Shown here: positions 55,837-64,000 of the stretch, one piece after another
How the letters are laid out: each line of letters starts with the position of its first letter
Numbering within the stretch: position 1 is the first letter of the stretch
Source of the DNA: a phage
Length of the DNA: 64,000 bases
Assembly (NCBI GenBank): GCA_020241865.1
Contig: GCA_020241865.1_4709.1
Strand: one strand, 5' to 3'
Program-made: the position numbers and the translations under genes
Notes under the pieces: model-generated
What the model saw: only the letters and a program-made list of their open reading frames with translations
The model's database searches: none
What the model was told of the DNA's origin: nothing

Positions 55837-56175
55837 TTAGAACCAGAGTTCTTTCATGAAGTAGGCTTCCGTATCGTAGATAAGCCACTCATCAGGGATT
55901 TCTAAAGGATCGTCTTCGGTTAAGGTGAGCATGTGCAGGGCGAACGCACGCTTAATATCTTCCAACAGCTTATCATCACCGTAACCTTCGGGTAGTTTAC
56001 GGTCAGCCAGCTGAGTTTGTTTATAGACATCGCGGAACGCTTCAGGGCTGTGTTTATCCATCGGAAATTGTTCAGCAGCCTGAACCATAGAAAGCGTCCA
56101 GCTTACAACATTGTAACGCTCACCGTTAATTTCACTGAACTTATCATCGATTAAACAGATTTGTTGTATATTCAT
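55837..56175 (-). CDS. hypothetical protein
   Basis: 112-aa ORF; ATGA overlap with the upstream gene. Confidence 0.45.
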   Translation of the reverse strand: MNIQQICLIDDKFSEINGERYNVVSWTLSMVQAAEQFPMDKHSPEAFRDVYKQTQLADRKLPEGYGDDKLLEDIKRAFALHMLTLTEDDPLEIPDEWLIYDTEAYFMKELWF

Positions 56176-57133: not shown

Positions 57134-59395
57134 TTACAATTCAAAATCTTCATCGATAACGCGCTGGGTAAGCACTTTGTCGCTGAAGAACTCCACCTTG
57201 CGCTGATGGTATTTACGATGTGCTTCTATCGAAGTACATACCAGATACCAGAACGTTGGTGTCATTCCTTCAAACTTCCCTTTCAGCTGACGTAGCCGTC
57301 CCAACACCTGAATGTTACCGGTTCGTGACCCCATCGCTAACGTCATGAACGTCATCACCAAGTCAGGAAGGTCGATGCCCGTACCTGCCGATTTCACGGT
57401 TGTAACGCTAATATCGTTATCCAACAAGACCATGAAATCTTCTTCAGCAGTATAAGGACCAATCTCTAACTCAGGAATACGTTCACTGAGATAATGCGAC
57501 AACGACTTACACATATCGACGGTTGCACAATACACCAGCATCTTCATACCTTCCTGATACTGGTTCATGAAACCTTTGATTATAACGGTATAGATGAAGT
57601 TAAAGTACGCGAGTTTGAGTTGCTTGTTCTTCATGATAGACTGTTCGAATATCGTGTGAGAATAAGAACCCCCAAAGCCTTTGTATCTGACTTTATCTGT
57701 ACTGCGTAGTCGATACGTCACGGCATTTACCGCAATGTATTTCTTGTATTCGCCTTTTGCATAACGGGCTTCTTTCGGATACATCAAATACAACATCCGC
57801 TCGATGAATGGATCGTCGGACACCGCCGTTGCTGACAGATAGATGATTTCCGGAATACTAGCGTAACACTTGACCTTAAACAAGAAATGCAATGCTTCAT
57901 GGCACTCGTCATGAATCAGAAGGCCTATGCCGGTCTTTTCCCAAAACTCGGCGGGATGGAAGGCATATGGCGCAACGCAGTTATTCTTCTCGTAGTCCGC
58001 AATATAACGTTGGAACATGTTCAAGGAGAACAATGCGATTTTGAAGTCGAGTTCACCTTGTTCAACCAAGGTTTGAAACTCCAACATACTGTAACGAGGA
58101 ATGTCGGGATGCGGTGGATCCTCCTTAGCGTTCCCGCGTATCTCGATAACATCCCCTGGTTCCATCCCGAAGAAGTTCAGCAGTGAGCTTCGCCAACCTG
58201 GCATATACCGCGGAGAAAGTATAATACCTGTGCGTACACCCCGCCTAAACACGATTTCCTGCGACATCGCGGTGTTATGCGTGACGATGTGGTCTTTAAT
58301 AACATAAAGGCTTTCGTCATTGTCCACCGTGATACAACGTGCTTTCGATTTCACCGTCGGCACGATGCTATCAATCGCTAAACCAGGAAGTCGGTTAACG
58401 GGGAGATCGTCTGGAATCTCAATGTCGTCAGGAATAAGCTTACGCAAATCGGAATGGTAAATTAATGTCACCATTATGTAACTATCAATGGGGTATTTAT
58501 ACGCAATTCCTCCTAACTGATAAGCCAACTCCCAGACCTTGGCTGTTATCTGCGAATTGACGGTTCTGACCGCAAGGTGAGCTTCCCCGTTTTTGATTCT
58601 CAGTTCACAACGACCTTTGATTACCGCCTTAAATTCCTCGAGACCGACGAGTTCTTTCGGTTCGTAAAGTCGGATTCTTACTGGACGAGATCGAGCAGGT
58701 CTGTCGTAAATACATTCCATGATTTCGTCCGTACTGAGAACTTTATCAGGGTCAGTACACTGCCAGAGATGATCACCACACGCTTCAACCATCCTACCGT
58801 CCTCAAAGAAGATAGCATAAAGCTGAATATCGTCATGATCAAATATAGCGGTTACGTTCGTCGGTAACCCATCCGCACCAATAACCTGATCCCCTAACTG
58901 AAGCTCGCCAATCGGCTTCCAACCGCCTGGAACCTTCACAGGTGTATTAAGCGGAATTGCTTTTCCTGACCCTGTTTGAGCGGTGTTTAGGCTCATTCTG
59001 AAGGGGGTATCCTTACCCCCGTCCATGTACTCCAACCATTCTTGCTGATCTTGACGCCATGGAAACTTCCATTTCTTTACGAACTCCACTTCTTTACCTG
59101 GTACCGGATCGTGATAGACGATTTCCAACCACTCTTTTCGTATCCCTCGAGAAAAGATAAAATCCAAAAACGATTTCAACTGTTCACGGAGTAAGTATAC
59201 CTCGCTATAATCGCTTCTTGCCGCGGCATACGTGTTTATGGTATCGGTAACCATTCTCCGTGTACGAGGGTCACGCCGTTTCCTCAGATGCAAACAACGG
59301 TCTCGAAGGTAATGGCCGATAAGATGGGCAAATCGAAGTCCGTATCCGCTCAGCCTCATGCCATGCGAGAAGACGTCGATACGAGCTAACTTCAT
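57134..59395 (-). CDS. SF2 DExH-box helicase/ATPase interrupted by an in-frame intein in the Walker A motif
   Basis: 753-aa ORF; Walker A is split as TGSGK / intein / T, which would read TGSGKT after splicing; motif II LLIHDECHEA downstream; start overlaps the stop of the upstream gene (ATGA). Confidence 0.75.
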   Translation of the reverse strand: MKLARIDVFSHGMRLSGYGLRFAHLIGHYLRDRCLHLRKRRDPRTRRMVTDTINTYAAARSDYSEVYLLREQLKSFLDFIFSRGIRKEWLEIVYHDPVPGKEVEFVKKWKFPWRQDQQEWLEYMDGGKDTPFRMSLNTAQTGSGKAIPLNTPVKVPGGWKPIGELQLGDQVIGADGLPTNVTAIFDHDDIQLYAIFFEDGRMVEACGDHLWQCTDPDKVLSTDEIMECIYDRPARSRPVRIRLYEPKELVGLEEFKAVIKGRCELRIKNGEAHLAVRTVNSQITAKVWELAYQLGGIAYKYPIDSYIMVTLIYHSDLRKLIPDDIEIPDDLPVNRLPGLAIDSIVPTVKSKARCITVDNDESLYVIKDHIVTHNTAMSQEIVFRRGVRTGIILSPRYMPGWRSSLLNFFGMEPGDVIEIRGNAKEDPPHPDIPRYSMLEFQTLVEQGELDFKIALFSLNMFQRYIADYEKNNCVAPYAFHPAEFWEKTGIGLLIHDECHEALHFLFKVKCYASIPEIIYLSATAVSDDPFIERMLYLMYPKEARYAKGEYKKYIAVNAVTYRLRSTDKVRYKGFGGSYSHTIFEQSIMKNKQLKLAYFNFIYTVIIKGFMNQYQEGMKMLVYCATVDMCKSLSHYLSERIPELEIGPYTAEEDFMVLLDNDISVTTVKSAGTGIDLPDLVMTFMTLAMGSRTGNIQVLGRLRQLKGKFEGMTPTFWYLVCTSIEAHRKYHQRKVEFFSDKVLTQRVIDEDFEL
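58274..58960 (-). mobile_element. intein (about 229 aa, Ala1 ... His-Asn, +1 Thr) inserted in the helicase P-loop
   Basis: Begins AIPLNTPVKVPGGWKPIGELQLGDQVIG (Hint block A-like) and ends ITVDNDESLYVIKDHIVTHN followed by T (blocks F/G with terminal HN); no LAGLIDADG or HNH motif recognised in the middle. Confidence 0.7.
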
Positions 59396-61398
59396 AACGT
59401 GATTACATCCTCCGGTTTAGGTTCTTTACGCGGTAACAGCATGTAGTCGATCGGATGATCCGGCTTCATGGTTGGGATATAACTGTTCGGGTTTTGGAAC
59501 GCATCCAGTTGCTCTTGGTGAGCGAACTTCATACTCAAGGAGCGCATGTTCATGTTCTTCTTGAAGGTACTGAAGTATCGTGTTGTTCCCTGTTTCGGCA
59601 TGCGATAATCTTTCGTGTGTGGCGAACGAATCATGCTGGCGTAGAGAATAACGTCGAGATGCGAAAGGTTCATTCGCAGACGCTGGGCACACAGACGATG
59701 CCAATAATACAGCACGTTTGCAACTTCTTCCGGTGTTGCTTCGTCTTCCGAGAGGAATCCGGCACTGAAAGAACCTTTCCCGAATTTGAACTCACGTTCG
59801 ATTTCTTTTGCGTATTCCATCATGTTTTTGTGGATTAACGGCATCTGGAATAACGTACGTGAATTGTCCCAATGTTTCAAGTCGAAAATCACAATCCCGT
59901 CAGACGTCACTTCCCAGCTATGGCGTTTAAGATAACGGATAAACGCTTTACTCGGTACAACAGGACGACCGCAGAAATCGAAATTGACTTTGAGCTTACG
60001 ATAGCTTTCATCTTTCCTGTCGTAAATCTCCATATCGCAAAGCGTCATGTTAAACAAACGTTGCGGTATCAGCGAACTGATTTCTTCCGCTTCGGCTACA
60101 TCGTACAACATGTTCGCAAGACCTAACTTCATCTTAATCAGCACGTGTTTACCTTTCAGCTCACGTGCGAGTTTGATGTCGTTCATGTTCTGGCTGTAGC
60201 GAAGGATATGTTGATATTCAGGTGGGATTGGTGCTGTGGATACCGTTGACGAACCATCGTGGTGTTTGGTAGAAAGAATGTTCTGCGTTACCTGTTGCGA
60301 GCAGGTACGCGCTGCACCATCGCCGACATTATCGGTTAGTGCGAAGTTATGACTTAATTCACCGTAACACGTTGTACATACCCCAGCAGGATCGGGATGA
60401 TGGCAATAGTTAACGGAGCGCATGCGTACCGTCGTACCAATCAATTCTTTCATGTGTGGTTGTATCGCTACCAACGAACCGTCATCACGAATAATGAATC
60501 GACCATGGAAGCCACGCAGGTCGGTCTCATCGCGGATTGGCATCGGGATGGTCTCTTTACTACCACAATCACCAGGATGGAGTCGTTGCACGACCGCTGT
60601 CGCTATCTGAAGTTCACGACCGAAGTATTCAGACTTCTTGATCTGCTCTTTGTTAAACAACAACGATTTTGCCGCAGAACGGCTTTCTTTCAAGCTGTCG
60701 GGAAGAGAGATCAAACCTGCCGCGTATGACCGCATTACTGGATCACGGAATATCTCGGAGTTAATATCAGTCAAGAATCCACGCATCCCAATACACTGTA
60801 GCACCTGCCCAATCGAAACGTGTTCGGTTCTTACCGCACGTGCAATAGGGTTTGCATGTAACGTTTTATCGGTGCTCAGTACCTTGGTCAGTTTCTTGTA
60901 TGCGCTTTCGATACCTTCACGGGTGGGTTCCGCTTCGGCGATGATTTTCTTAACTTCGGGGTGTACAGTAATCTGATAAAAATCATCCGCGCAAATCGTT
61001 GTTACGTATTCCTCCAACGCATACGTAAAGAAGTTATACACATTGTTAAACATATCGAACAATGCTTTCCAGAGAACCTCACGATTCTCTTGTGGGTAAG
61101 CATACATGCATTGACGATACGCGGCGCTTTGCAACGCAACCGATGAACCCGCTGTGAACTTGCGTTTATCAACCAGGTTCTCTTTTGTCAGTGGTGTCTC
61201 AGGATACATGCGATGCACAGACCAGTGCATGTAACTAAAGAAAATGCGTCGCGCACGTAATTCATGAACGCCATCGTCCATCTCGATATATACGCGGTCA
61301 TTAGGCTGTGCCCACTCGAATACCTCATCAACCGGCCAGTGCATAAGCTCGCGTGCCCTCACACGACGTTTCGTGGTGGTCGTCTGTGTTGTAGTCAT
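59392..61398 (-). CDS. large hypothetical protein with Cys/His cluster, translationally coupled to the helicase
   Basis: 668-aa ORF; CHHPDPAGVCTTCYG cluster; function not recognised. Confidence 0.5.
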   Translation of the reverse strand: MTTTQTTTTKRRVRARELMHWPVDEVFEWAQPNDRVYIEMDDGVHELRARRIFFSYMHWSVHRMYPETPLTKENLVDKRKFTAGSSVALQSAAYRQCMYAYPQENREVLWKALFDMFNNVYNFFTYALEEYVTTICADDFYQITVHPEVKKIIAEAEPTREGIESAYKKLTKVLSTDKTLHANPIARAVRTEHVSIGQVLQCIGMRGFLTDINSEIFRDPVMRSYAAGLISLPDSLKESRSAAKSLLFNKEQIKKSEYFGRELQIATAVVQRLHPGDCGSKETIPMPIRDETDLRGFHGRFIIRDDGSLVAIQPHMKELIGTTVRMRSVNYCHHPDPAGVCTTCYGELSHNFALTDNVGDGAARTCSQQVTQNILSTKHHDGSSTVSTAPIPPEYQHILRYSQNMNDIKLARELKGKHVLIKMKLGLANMLYDVAEAEEISSLIPQRLFNMTLCDMEIYDRKDESYRKLKVNFDFCGRPVVPSKAFIRYLKRHSWEVTSDGIVIFDLKHWDNSRTLFQMPLIHKNMMEYAKEIEREFKFGKGSFSAGFLSEDEATPEEVANVLYYWHRLCAQRLRMNLSHLDVILYASMIRSPHTKDYRMPKQGTTRYFSTFKKNMNMRSLSMKFAHQEQLDAFQNPNSYIPTMKPDHPIDYMLLPRKEPKPEDVITL

Positions 61399-61543
61399 TA
61401 TTGCTTTCCGATTTAAATGGTTTTATCATACGGTTTACCAAATCCGTTGGACTTTACTATCGTTGTGATAGCATCGGGAATCCCTTCCCTTAGGTTATGT
61501 AGGTGTTAATATATCTCCACTGCTGACCTTTATGTCGGCAGCA

Positions 61544-62029
61544 TTATCCAGCTTTCTGTTGTAAAGCGTATGGATCCATAGCGTCAGACATATCCGCAAA
61601 AACGGTGAGAATAAACCCCTTTATCTGTCTCACCTCGGTTACACGAAGCCCTTTATCATTGCGATATACGTTTTCTTCACCGACTAACTTTGGTCGAATA
61701 ACATAAACTCCATCAACAAGCGGGAATGTCGGATACGGATAAATACCGATACGAATGATGTTTGGGTGATCGCCTAGAAGGTCACGTCCAAACTTATCGA
61801 CTCGACCATAAATCGTTCCATCCGCACCTTCCACCTCAATGAGATCATTTCGAATATCCTGAAATAGCTGTTCTAACGTGTCGGTGGGATACGCATATGC
61901 GACGCCTAACGCTGGATCCTCAATGGTTTTGACACTGAATCCGTTAAGCCAAACAATCCGTTCATCCGCCCATGTTTCTTCATATACCGTTAACCCATCG
62001 CCGTATATGTTGGCGTGTGCTATCTCCAT
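61544..62029 (-). CDS. hypothetical protein
   Basis: 161-aa ORF; preceded by a 31-codon mini-ORF that starts just after hairpin 62144..62173. Confidence 0.45.
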   Translation of the reverse strand: MEIAHANIYGDGLTVYEETWADERIVWLNGFSVKTIEDPALGVAYAYPTDTLEQLFQDIRNDLIEVEGADGTIYGRVDKFGRDLLGDHPNIIRIGIYPYPTFPLVDGVYVIRPKLVGEENVYRNDKGLRVTEVRQIKGFILTVFADMSDAMDPYALQQKAG

Positions 62030-62143
62030 AATCTCATTTCCTCTTATACGTTAGGATAGATGACATGTTGGATATACGTTGCCTTTGCATATATTGCTTT
62101 ATTTCCGTCAGAAATAACGGAAAATAAAAACAACGACATAGTT

Positions 62144-62173
62144 CCCTCCCACCTCCACATGGGAGAGGGAGGG
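62144..62173 (-). terminator. hairpin of the recurrent family (CCCTCCC/GGGAGGG with inner CC/GG pairing)
   Basis: 7-bp stem 62144-62150/62167-62173; on plus it is followed by TATTCGTGTTTATTACTCTATGCTG. Confidence 0.5.
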
Positions 62174-62186
62174 CTATTCGTGTTTA

Positions 62187-62549
62187 TTACTCTATGCTGT
62201 CTTCTTCAGCACAATCCTCTTCTGAACCGTCGAACGTTTTCTGCACTGCAGTGGTATCCCAGTTGGCAGCGTAATCAGCCATCGCTTCGCGCAGCGCTTC
62301 TTCACCGGCATCACCAGCCAGGTCAAGCACAACCAAACCTTGCGCGACGTTTTGAGCAACTGTATCAATAACGGTTGCATCTTCTTCAAAACTACGTACC
62401 GGTTCAATGGTGCCTACATCAACAGCATAGTTCGTGGTCGCTGTAAGCACGGCGACTTGTAGCGCATCGCTATCTTCATCATGCAATGCTGCTTCAATAC
62501 CGATTGGACGGACCAGTTCTTGCAGAGTTAATTTGCGAATTAAGTTCAT
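62187..62549 (-). CDS. small highly acidic protein, paralog of 63041..63451
   Basis: 120-aa ORF rich in D/E; the AQGLVVLDLAGDAGEEALREAM segment parallels ARGLMLLELFGEQGRTELQSEL in 63041..63451. Confidence 0.5.
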   Translation of the reverse strand: MNLIRKLTLQELVRPIGIEAALHDEDSDALQVAVLTATTNYAVDVGTIEPVRSFEEDATVIDTVAQNVAQGLVVLDLAGDAGEEALREAMADYAANWDTTAVQKTFDGSEEDCAEEDSIE

Positions 62550-62570
62550 TATATTTTCCTCAGGTGAATG

Positions 62571-62921
62571 TTAGCAATCGTTTAAAACTTTTTCGATACG
62601 ATGGTTGACGAATTCATTGAACGACTCTTCGGCTTGTTCGATAATTTCATCAACGTCGATATCTAATTGTTGGGGTTGGATAACATGCTCTTTCATGGTT
62701 TCTAGCCAGTATTCGGCTTTAACCATAACGTTAGCGACTTGTTCGACCTGACTGCGTATGTCGACGATCTGGCAATCAGGATTGTTAATATCGATGATGT
62801 GTCCGTGGTGTTTGATAAACCCTAACTTATTCGACGCCCTTACCGCATCGCGGGCAAGCTCTTGCAAGATTAAATTATTTACATAGTTCACTGCTATGGA
62901 ACGATTTTCTTTATCACTCAT
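62571..62921 (-). CDS. small acidic protein
   Basis: 116-aa ORF. Confidence 0.45.
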   Translation of the reverse strand: MSDKENRSIAVNYVNNLILQELARDAVRASNKLGFIKHHGHIIDINNPDCQIVDIRSQVEQVANVMVKAEYWLETMKEHVIQPQQLDIDVDEIIEQAEESFNEFVNHRIEKVLNDC

Positions 62922-63000
62922 ACCAGGGATCCTCTTTTAAGTGTTCACATTCTAGTGTTAAGCAGTTAAAATAAACCGTCCCTTTAATCAGCATAAACAT

Positions 63001-63029
63001 CCTCCTCCCACCACATAGGCAGGAGGAGG
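63001..63029 (-). terminator. hairpin of the recurrent family (CCTCCTCC/GGAGGAGG) followed on the minus strand by ATGTTTATGCTG
   Basis: 8-bp stem; a 28-codon mini-ORF starting at ATGTTTATGCTG ends overlapping the start of 62571..62921. Confidence 0.55.
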
Positions 63030-63040
63030 CGTAATATGCA

Positions 63041-63451
63041 TCAGAAAGGAGGACGATCTTTAAATTCTAGCAACGTGTCTTCGAAGCAAGCGATGAGTTC
63101 AGACTGCAATTCGGTACGGCCTTGTTCACCGAAGAGTTCCAGCAACATTAACCCCCGAGCGGTCTTCGTAGCAACCTCTTCGCAGATGCGGAGATCGTGA
63201 ACTTCATCATCGTTGACATCTTTACGTAACTGCGCTGCAATGAGCTTAAGATTGCCGTTTTCATCGTACTCGTCACGAAATGCATCATAAGCCGCATCGA
63301 TGTTCGCTATCCGTGTCAACCCTTCAGAATCCCGCCAGTCTCGATATAATCCAAGCAGGCGATTATGATTCTTCGTTTTGATGTTCGGTGCTGGAAGGTT
63401 GCGCAACAGATGTGGTGTAATCATTGCTATCACGCTATCCGAATGATCCAT
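63041..63451 (-). CDS. small acidic protein, paralog of 62187..62549
   Basis: 136-aa ORF. Confidence 0.5.
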   Translation of the reverse strand: MDHSDSVIAMITPHLLRNLPAPNIKTKNHNRLLGLYRDWRDSEGLTRIANIDAAYDAFRDEYDENGNLKLIAAQLRKDVNDDEVHDLRICEEVATKTARGLMLLELFGEQGRTELQSELIACFEDTLLEFKDRPPF

Positions 63452-63462
63452 CGTATACCTCG

Positions 63463-63969
63463 TTAGCTTTCGCAGTCATCTGCGTCGATGATTTGTCCGC
63501 CAGCAACGTTCAGTTGATGATACAGAATCCTCAACGCACGGTTGCCACCAATGGGATACTTCTCGAAGTTGGTTGCGATAGGAATCGCTGACGGCTTATC
63601 GGTCGCATAGATGCTTTCAGTGATGCTATCCACCTGTTTTGGATTGTTCGCATAATCCATAAAGACGCTTGCGAACCATCCGCCAGCAAAGGCGGTCACT
63701 TCGCGATGTTCAGATTCACCACAGTAACGAGTCGGTTGCTCTTTACCCGGAGAACTGTATTTATCGCTATTACTGAGCTTCGACGGTAATCCATGCGCCT
63801 GCAATTTAGGGATACCCACAGCTGACCAATCGTTCGCCGTCTTCTCCAACATCATGATGTACGTGTCACCGATCGCAATATCGTTCTTGGTTGTCCGCCA
63901 CTGCCCAGAACGTCCACGATACCGTACAGGACCTTTCTTCAACGGGAACTCACGAATCAGATTCTCCAT
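63463..63969 (-). CDS. hypothetical protein
   Basis: 168-aa ORF with ATG at 63967..63969. Confidence 0.45.
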   Translation of the reverse strand: MENLIREFPLKKGPVRYRGRSGQWRTTKNDIAIGDTYIMMLEKTANDWSAVGIPKLQAHGLPSKLSNSDKYSSPGKEQPTRYCGESEHREVTAFAGGWFASVFMDYANNPKQVDSITESIYATDKPSAIPIATNFEKYPIGGNRALRILYHQLNVAGGQIIDADDCES

Positions 63970-64000
63970 ACGTTCTGAACCGGCTGCGATACTGTCCGTT

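Follow-up and report, generated by a model that had tools for sequence, protein, structure and literature searches.

The locus analyzed here raises the question of whether three small open reading frames (ORFs) of a phage encode DNA-mimic inhibitors of restriction or of other DNA-binding defences, as a preliminary description of this DNA had proposed. The window, i.e., the whole stretch of DNA analyzed, is 64,000 nt long. The three ORFs, here called A, B, and C, lie near one end of it, with the following neighbors:

59392..61398, minus strand: non-virion RNA polymerase (nvRNAP) subunit, homologue of Goslar gp165 and phiKZ gp74; it bounds the insertion described below on the downstream side
61544..62029, minus strand: gp166 homologue (161 aa, pI 4.5), in the same lineage-specific insertion
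62144..62173, minus strand: CCCUCCC...GGGAGGG hairpin directly 3′ of A (dG −28.5 kcal/mol, z −4.6)
62187..62549, minus strand: ORF A, Goslar gp168 homologue (120 aa, pI approximately 3.8, charge −21)
62571..62921, minus strand: ORF B, Goslar gp169 homologue (116 aa, pI 4.78)
63001..63029, minus strand: terminator-like CCUCC...GGAGG hairpin between C and B (dG −31.3 kcal/mol, z −5.8)
63041..63451, minus strand: ORF C, Goslar gp170 homologue (136 aa, pI 4.86)
63463..64000, minus strand: C-terminal part of an nvRNAP subunit, Goslar gp171 homologue (phrog_3295, E 7e-46), continuing beyond the window

The megablast search with positions 61400–64000 showed 97.7% nucleotide identity to Escherichia phage vB_EcoM_Goslar over the full query. 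The counterpart in Goslar is located at positions 151,533–154,133 of 237,307. Goslar is a nucleus-forming jumbo phage (chimallivirus) whose host is E. coli, and the window, judged by sequence, is from a Goslar-like nucleus-forming jumbo phage. ORFs A, B, and C were 97–99% identical to Goslar gp168, gp169, and gp170, and the region matched the RefSeq annotation gene by gene. A Shine-Dalgarno-like sequence was read 6–9 nt 5′ of each of the three ORFs. A database version of B with 140 aa has a wrongly called start codon: in the window, the additional stretch is not in frame with the ORF. The cluster had been described as lying at a genome end, which proved wrong: the locus is at 152.3–153.6 kb of the 237 kb Goslar genome, and only the window ends there.

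The neighbors of the A–C cluster are gp166, the tiny gp167, and the polymerase subunit gp165 on one side and the polymerase subunit gp171 on the other. The stop codon of the gp171 homologue is 11 nt ahead of the start of C. The two nvRNAP genes adjoin each other in phiKZ (gp71-73 and gp74) and in Erwinia phage Simmy50 (gp253 and gp254), which indicates that the gp166–170 block is a Goslar-lineage insertion that splits these two genes within a conserved operon.

The transcript class of the genes was taken from published RNA-seq of Goslar under chimallin knockdown (Armbruster et al., bioRxiv 10.1101/2023.09.20.558163, Sup. Table 2). Gene numbering between the data sets was confirmed by exact protein masses, and the mass computed for A (12,870 Da) equals the value in the table of the virion mass-spectrometry study (bioRxiv 10.64898/2026.04.21.720040). 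The log2 fold changes were +0.84 to +1.12 for gp168, +0.60 to +0.94 for gp169, and +0.76 to +1.12 for gp170, and the flanking polymerase genes behaved in the same way (bioRxiv 10.1101/2023.09.20.558163). Late and structural genes had values of −3 to −7, such as approximately −4 for the major capsid protein, −3.7 for gp58, −5.7 for gp61, and approximately −6.8 for gp7 (bioRxiv 10.1101/2023.09.20.558163). The positive values, unlike those of the late genes, place gp168–170 in the early transcript class, which is ascribed to the virion polymerase working from the early infection vesicle (bioRxiv 10.1101/2023.09.20.558163).

The hairpin between C and B was picked up by a terminator scan and is kept in a related contig (L002). 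We considered whether B and A form a separately regulated late operon between the two hairpins. This was rejected: the Goslar RNA-seq read density is even over gp164–gp171, so that the hairpins do not bound a separate B–A unit, and the genes are early-class. The phiKZ-type early promoter TATATTAC was not enriched in the window (41 matches vs 65 expected).

The preliminary description had presented all three products as strongly acidic. The pI values were recomputed, the Biopython pI routine having a floor at 4.05. The three ORFs are present, and A is indeed extreme, with 22.5% D+E, 5% K+R, a charge of −21, and a pI of 3.81, and is the most acidic among the 90 non-overlapping ORFs of the window. 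Its residues 1–100 alone carry a charge of −14. T7 Ocr (gp0.3), for comparison, has 117 aa, a pI of 3.87, a charge of −27.8, and 5.1% K+R. The pI and charge calculation, which had been suggested as a check, thus gave an Ocr-like value for A (3.81 vs 3.87) but not for B (charge −9.7, pI 4.78) or C (charge −8.8, pI 4.86). The acidity of B and C is ordinary for this phage, since many ORFs of the window are similar, and the gp166 homologue has a pI of 4.5.

The family and structure searches returned no DNA mimic. A, B, and C had no Pfam match at E ≤ 1, with the Ocr and ArdA models included. ArdA and ArdB-KlcA gave no near-threshold match in Pfam or NCBIfam, the PF12699 domain was not found in the three proteins by Pfam, and nothing credible was found in PHROGs, PADLOC, or NCBIfam. 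PDB sequence profiles gave nothing meaningful for A, B, or C. Smith-Waterman alignment against T7 Ocr gave z values of 2.1 (A), 0.5 (B), and −0.8 (C), so the likeness is compositional only. The AF2 models of A (pLDDT 37.9, from an alignment of 19 sequences with identities of 88% or more) and C (pLDDT 48.4, from a 6-sequence alignment) were too poor for a judgement of fold. The Foldseek search of these low-pLDDT models against the PDB had best E values of 1.8 (A) and 0.74 (C), with no DNA mimic, and was uninformative.

Two other families were considered for A and rejected. Five of the nine best Foldseek matches of A were RNA polymerase omega (RpoZ/Rpb6), but with E values of at least 1.8 on the pLDDT 38 model; the hhalign comparison of the A family with E. 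coli RpoZ gave P = 0.46, and Pfam gave no match. The omega lead was tempting since A sits between polymerase genes. The RraA family appeared with TIGR01935 (E 0.025, 14 bits vs a cutoff of 124) and 1nxj (E 1.4), and was gone with a more diverse profile.

A and C had also been called paralogous. BLASTP showed no similarity between them. Smith-Waterman alignment gave a score of 57 (z 6.1), which was reached by one of 2000 shuffles. The profile-profile comparison of the A family with the C family aligned 35 columns with P = 7e-4, and with divergent members added it aligned residues 56–93 of A with residues 85–122 of C (38 columns, P = 1e-4, probability 57%). A divergent C homologue from contig L005 aligned with A at z 7.8. 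The common segment is AQGLVVLDLAGDAGEEALRE in A and ARGLMLLELFGEQGRTELQSE in C, at the following positions:

62271..62384, minus strand: segment of A common to C (residues 56–93; hhalign P = 1e-4, 38 columns)
63086..63199, minus strand: segment of C common to A (residues 85–122; best-conserved part of C)

By these alignments, the A–C similarity of approximately 38 residues is above chance (z 6.1; P = 1e-4), while paralogy itself is plausible only. A and C would then be remote tandem paralogues with later divergent fates. A and B have in common NLI..L.LQEL.R, a 14-residue N-terminal stretch, with P = 0.01 only.

The distribution of the three proteins is narrow. In tblastn of A, B, and C against 50,697 phage records, Goslar was the sole match. 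A word search of 5.8 billion proteins found only close relatives, most of them on contigs of approximately 240 kb, plus C alleles at 53% identity; conserved homologues are present on dozens of such contigs. HMMER against 1.84 billion representatives found two clusters for A, the further of which (P0040) was 53% identical. Across the 5.8-billion-protein search, the 1.84-billion-representative HMMER search, and the IMG/VR and JGI metagenome scans, only Goslar-like phages were found, except for one divergent contig, L005, which carries P0040. This contig encodes a gp171 homologue 65% identical to that of Goslar, then C (30% identity), a hairpin, and A. B is missing from it.

The comparison of Goslar with contig L002 gave the following substitution rates:

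gp165: dN 0.019, dS 0.796, dN/dS 0.024, amino acid identity 96.7%
gp171: dN 0.003, dS 0.863, dN/dS 0.003, amino acid identity 99.6%
A (gp168), whole: dN 0.061, dS 0.922, dN/dS 0.066, amino acid identity 90.0%
B (gp169): dN 0.056, dS 0.375, dN/dS 0.148, amino acid identity 88.8%
C (gp170): dN 0.408, dS saturated, dN/dS not computable, amino acid identity 54%

Within A, residues 1–100 had a dN of 0.004 and a dS of 0.73, so the core is almost invariant. Almost all of the divergence of A lies in one further feature of the locus:

62190..62249, minus strand: variable acidic C-terminal tail of A (residues 101–120; dN 0.405)

In the alignment, the sequence of this tail shifts and its acidic composition is kept. 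ORF C occurred in two allele classes across ten loci, one with 90% identity or more to that of the window and the other with about 54%. The allele class of C is independent of its neighbors: contig L011, which is similar to L002 in A, B, and gp166, has the other C allele. This indicates exchange of C alleles among near-identical phages. Such allelic behavior is as expected for a host-interaction gene, and C is a candidate for one; in that role, it would be exposed to diversifying or allele-exchange pressure.

These data bear on the proposal of an Ocr/ArdA-type DNA mimic, be it A alone or A together with C and B, which would bind and block type I restriction enzymes or related DNA-binding defences early in infection. 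Ocr forms an elongated helical dimer in which carboxylates mimic bent B-DNA, and it inhibits type I restriction-modification enzymes. A, alone of the three, resembles it in length (120 vs 117 aa), pI, content of basic residues (5%), acidic C-terminal tail, and early expression. C is hypervariable among alleles, as an arms-race gene would be, and presence in the particle, if real, would permit action at entry. However, A has no sequence relationship to Ocr (z 2.1), and none of the three has an Ocr/ArdA, PADLOC, PHROGs, or NCBIfam match. The core of A is frozen like that of a core gene, unlike a counter-defence gene, and the acidity of B and C is unexceptional. Ocr is encoded at the leading genome end, whereas the A–C locus, though early-class, is in mid-genome (152–153.6 kb of 237 kb), with A inside the polymerase operon. 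A is also reported in virion preparations; we know of no description of Ocr in such preparations. Finally, the phage that encodes A shields its DNA physically. Chimallivirus DNA is reported to lie in the early infection vesicle and then in the phage nucleus and to be shielded there from restriction enzymes, which lowers the prior for an anti-restriction role. Positive evidence for DNA mimicry is thus compositional only and concerns A only. A DNA-mimic anti-restriction role of A, B, and C is possible but not supported by these results, and we regard it as improbable.

Another proposal, that the ORFs or the A–C similarity are functionless chance features, is refuted by the evidence. Only the blindness of BLASTP to the A–C similarity speaks for it. 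All three genes are transcribed, and peptides of each of the three proteins have been observed. The dN/dS ratio is 0.066 (A) and 0.148 (B), homologues are conserved on dozens of contigs of approximately 240 kb, and independent family members gave the A–C similarity again. A, B, and C are real genes of a Goslar-like chimallivirus and are expressed.

Published mass spectrometry of Goslar virion preparations (bioRxiv 10.64898/2026.04.21.720040) reported the following copies per virion:

gp168 (A): approximately 219 (range 146–344; 8 peptides, 50% coverage)
gp169 (B): approximately 92
gp170 (C): approximately 2.8
gp166: approximately 1
gp165 (nvRNAP subunit): 0.25
gp171 (nvRNAP subunit): 0
chimallin (gp246): approximately 126, a co-purifying assembly according to the authors
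PhuZ (gp234): approximately 171, a co-purifying assembly according to the authors

By these copy numbers, to which contamination may contribute, A and, less so, B are several-hundred-fold enriched over their operon neighbors in virion preparations. The protein gp168 is among twelve unmodelled proteins with more than 200 copies and without predicted function, it has no ordered cryo-EM density, and it is outside the four proteins covered by the GFP-fusion check, namely gp60, gp61, gp208, and gp209 (bioRxiv 10.64898/2026.04.21.720040). When we combined the two published data sets, gp168, gp169, gp158, gp162, and gp214 proved to be early-class although virion preparations contain them in abundance. 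All packaged proteins that we checked (gp7, gp22, gp23, gp58, gp60, gp61, gp88, gp208, and gp209) are late-class, so an early-class cargo would be atypical, though gp158 and gp214 share the pattern.

The enrichment has two interpretations besides true cargo. In the first, gp168 and gp169 are unpackaged, being abundant early intracellular proteins bound to a large, early-made assembly that co-purifies with virions (for example, the nuclear shell, PhuZ filaments, or ribosomes), and their function is inside the infected cell. Their transcripts are early-class, as are those of chimallin and PhuZ, and their copies (219 and 92) are of the same order as those of these known contaminants (126 and 171). 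According to the authors, the preparation also captured fragments of the nucleus and PhuZ filaments (bioRxiv 10.64898/2026.04.21.720040), and the lack of ordered density for gp168 also fits. However, the co-transcribed soluble neighbors are present at only 0–3 copies, which makes the enrichment selective; gp168 is more abundant than chimallin and therefore cannot be a sub-stoichiometric passenger of the shell; and the early-class gp158 and gp214, at approximately 900 copies, suggest that early proteins can be real virion components. We consider co-purification somewhat unlikely, but it must be taken seriously.

In the second interpretation, A and B serve inside the head as acidic structural or assembly proteins, scaffold-like or inner-body-like, with no anti-host role. 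The high copy number, the lack of ordered density, and the extreme purifying selection on the core of A, as in structural proteins, are consistent with this. In addition, G-I-E19 of A resembles S/A/G-X-E, the prohead-protease consensus of phiKZ. In P0040, the divergent homologue, L-E-L-E takes the place of this site. Transcription is early, not late, the genes are in a polymerase operon and outside the structural module, and no PF12699 domain is present. The A family was not found in other chimalliviruses, and B is missing even from L005. We consider a structural role in the head doubtful.

Known virion proteins allow a further comparison. In the same proteome, gp58 and gp53 (PF12699 inner-body proteins), gp60-gp61, and gp208-gp209 are, like gp168 and gp169, of high copy number without ordered density, and gp60/61 and gp208/209 likewise come from adjacent genes, as do gp169 and gp168. 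These proteins are late-class (log2 −3 to −6) and conserved in other chimalliviruses, whereas gp168 and gp169 are early-class (+0.6 to +1.1 vs −3.7 for gp58), specific to the Goslar lineage, and without PF12699. T4 IPI* and P1 DarA/DarB are pre-packaged, injected anti-restriction proteins, late products that are loaded during head assembly. The protein gp168 would resemble them in being delivered with the DNA, if it is really packaged at approximately 200 copies, but it has no homology to them and is early-class. The acidic C-terminal tails of bacterial SSB, T7 gp2.5, and T4 gp32 bind basic clefts of partner proteins. A has a similar short tail, variable in sequence and conserved in composition; its body, however, is itself strongly acidic (−14 for residues 1–100), and binding of DNA by A is therefore not to be expected.

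With its frozen core, its variable acidic tail, and its enrichment in particle preparations, A looks like a specific binding protein that accompanies the virion. We therefore favor, tentatively and for the most part by inference, the explanation that A is a polyanionic binding protein travelling with the particle, perhaps jointly with B. A, possibly plus B, would be non-enzymatic, would sit on the basic, nucleic-acid-binding surface of a partner, and would be carried into the next cell by the particle. The candidate partner would be a host DNA-binding protein or a packaged one of the phage itself, such as the virion polymerase. We infer the binding or decoy mechanism from the composition of A alone. 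Several observations speak against polyanionic cargo: the same preparation contains the early proteins chimallin and PhuZ, which keeps co-purification of gp168 a serious alternative; the other packaged proteins that we checked are late-class; the even read density leaves no separately regulated B–A unit; and no N-terminal motif common to gp168 and the other virion proteins, as would be expected of a capsid-targeting signal, was seen among 15 virion-preparation proteins. A more specific version is a speculation that we hold to be unlikely. Here, gp168 would be a DNA-mimic-like polyanionic virion cargo with early transcripts, loaded into or onto particles at approximately 200 copies and delivered with the genome. 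It would then neutralize a host DNA-binding defence or nucleoid protein, or would occupy the DNA channel of the packaged virion RNA polymerase until injection, and its fast-evolving paralogue gp170 would be the intracellular arms-race version.

The genes were already annotated as hypothetical, and gp168 had been flagged as an unexplained high-copy virion protein (bioRxiv 10.64898/2026.04.21.720040). New here are the A–C relationship, the placement of the genes in an insertion, the difference in selection between A and C, the shuffled alleles of C, and the mismatch of early transcription with abundance in virion preparations. If none of the functional explanations holds, these are lineage-specific genes of no assigned function, and the DNA-mimic label should not spread. 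The contrast between the frozen A and the two-allele, recombining C marks C as a candidate host-interaction gene. Chimalliviruses are thought to evade DNA-targeting defences mainly by physical shielding. If polyanionic cargo is the true explanation, an Ocr-like polyanion that is transcribed early and yet abundant in particles would be an unexpected item of the payload beside the DNA and the virion polymerase.

The gene B (homologue of Goslar gp169) is annotated at 139–140 aa in many database homologues, which start at an upstream ATG directly past a hairpin. Such a long call is found in the following contig, and likewise in the database proteins P0031, P0032 and P0034–P0037.

L002 10461–10883, long call of the B homologue

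Because this upstream extension is out of frame in the window, the 116-aa form is the real B gene. The 116-aa form has a ribosome-binding site.

The hairpins of the CCTCC...GGAGG family gave 13 pattern matches at 9 sites in the window, against a chance expectation of 0.28 matches.

5285, 25466, 42177, 43777, 50148, 52064, 55789, 62145 and 63001, CCTCC...GGAGG hairpin sites

Two of these hairpins flank the pair formed by B and A (homologue of gp168). The RNA-seq density was even across both (bioRxiv 10.1101/2023.09.20.558163), and therefore the phage polymerase may not be terminated efficiently there. A short ORF lies directly past the hairpin that follows A.

62044–62139, minus strand, Goslar gp167 homologue, 31-aa ORF

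The read density of gp167 was about one third of that of its neighbours (bioRxiv 10.1101/2023.09.20.558163), and it is doubtful that this ORF encodes a protein.

Another small acidic protein was found in the same early-class block (transcripts raised under chimallin knockdown) as A, B and C (homologue of gp170).

55837–56175, minus strand, Goslar gp162 homologue, 112 aa, pI 4.3–4.4

No sequence similarity was found between the gp162 homologue and A, B or C. Mass spectrometry estimated Goslar gp162 at about 127 copies per virion (bioRxiv 10.64898/2026.04.21.720040). Two unmodelled Goslar proteins were noted as well.

L014 8554–9036, Goslar gp158
L018 9335–9814, Goslar gp214

These reached about 926 (gp158) and 865 (gp214) copies in Goslar virion preparations, ranking second and third by abundance among the unmodelled proteins (bioRxiv 10.64898/2026.04.21.720040). 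Their transcripts are early-class, with log2 fold changes of about +0.9 and +1.0, respectively (bioRxiv 10.1101/2023.09.20.558163), whereas the other high-copy virion proteins checked are late-class. Both source papers leave this mismatch between early transcription and virion abundance without comment.

The helicase gene (57134–59395) carries an in-frame insertion that interrupts the Walker A motif (GSGK|T).

58274–58960, minus strand, in-frame insertion of 229 aa

The insertion looks like an intein, since it begins with Ala and ends in ...VTHN, followed by Thr. It is also present in contig L002 (753-aa protein) and absent from the Goslar reference gp164 (524 aa). When the 753-aa protein was searched over its full length against Pfam, nothing matched at E <= 0.01.

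On the basis of proteins P0001, P0002, P0010, P0011 and P0021, Goslar-like genomes of about 240 kb occur as contigs within assemblies that bear the names E. coli O157, Shigella flexneri, Shigella sonnei and Salmonella Enteritidis, which points to Goslar-like phage travelling along with bacterial isolates.
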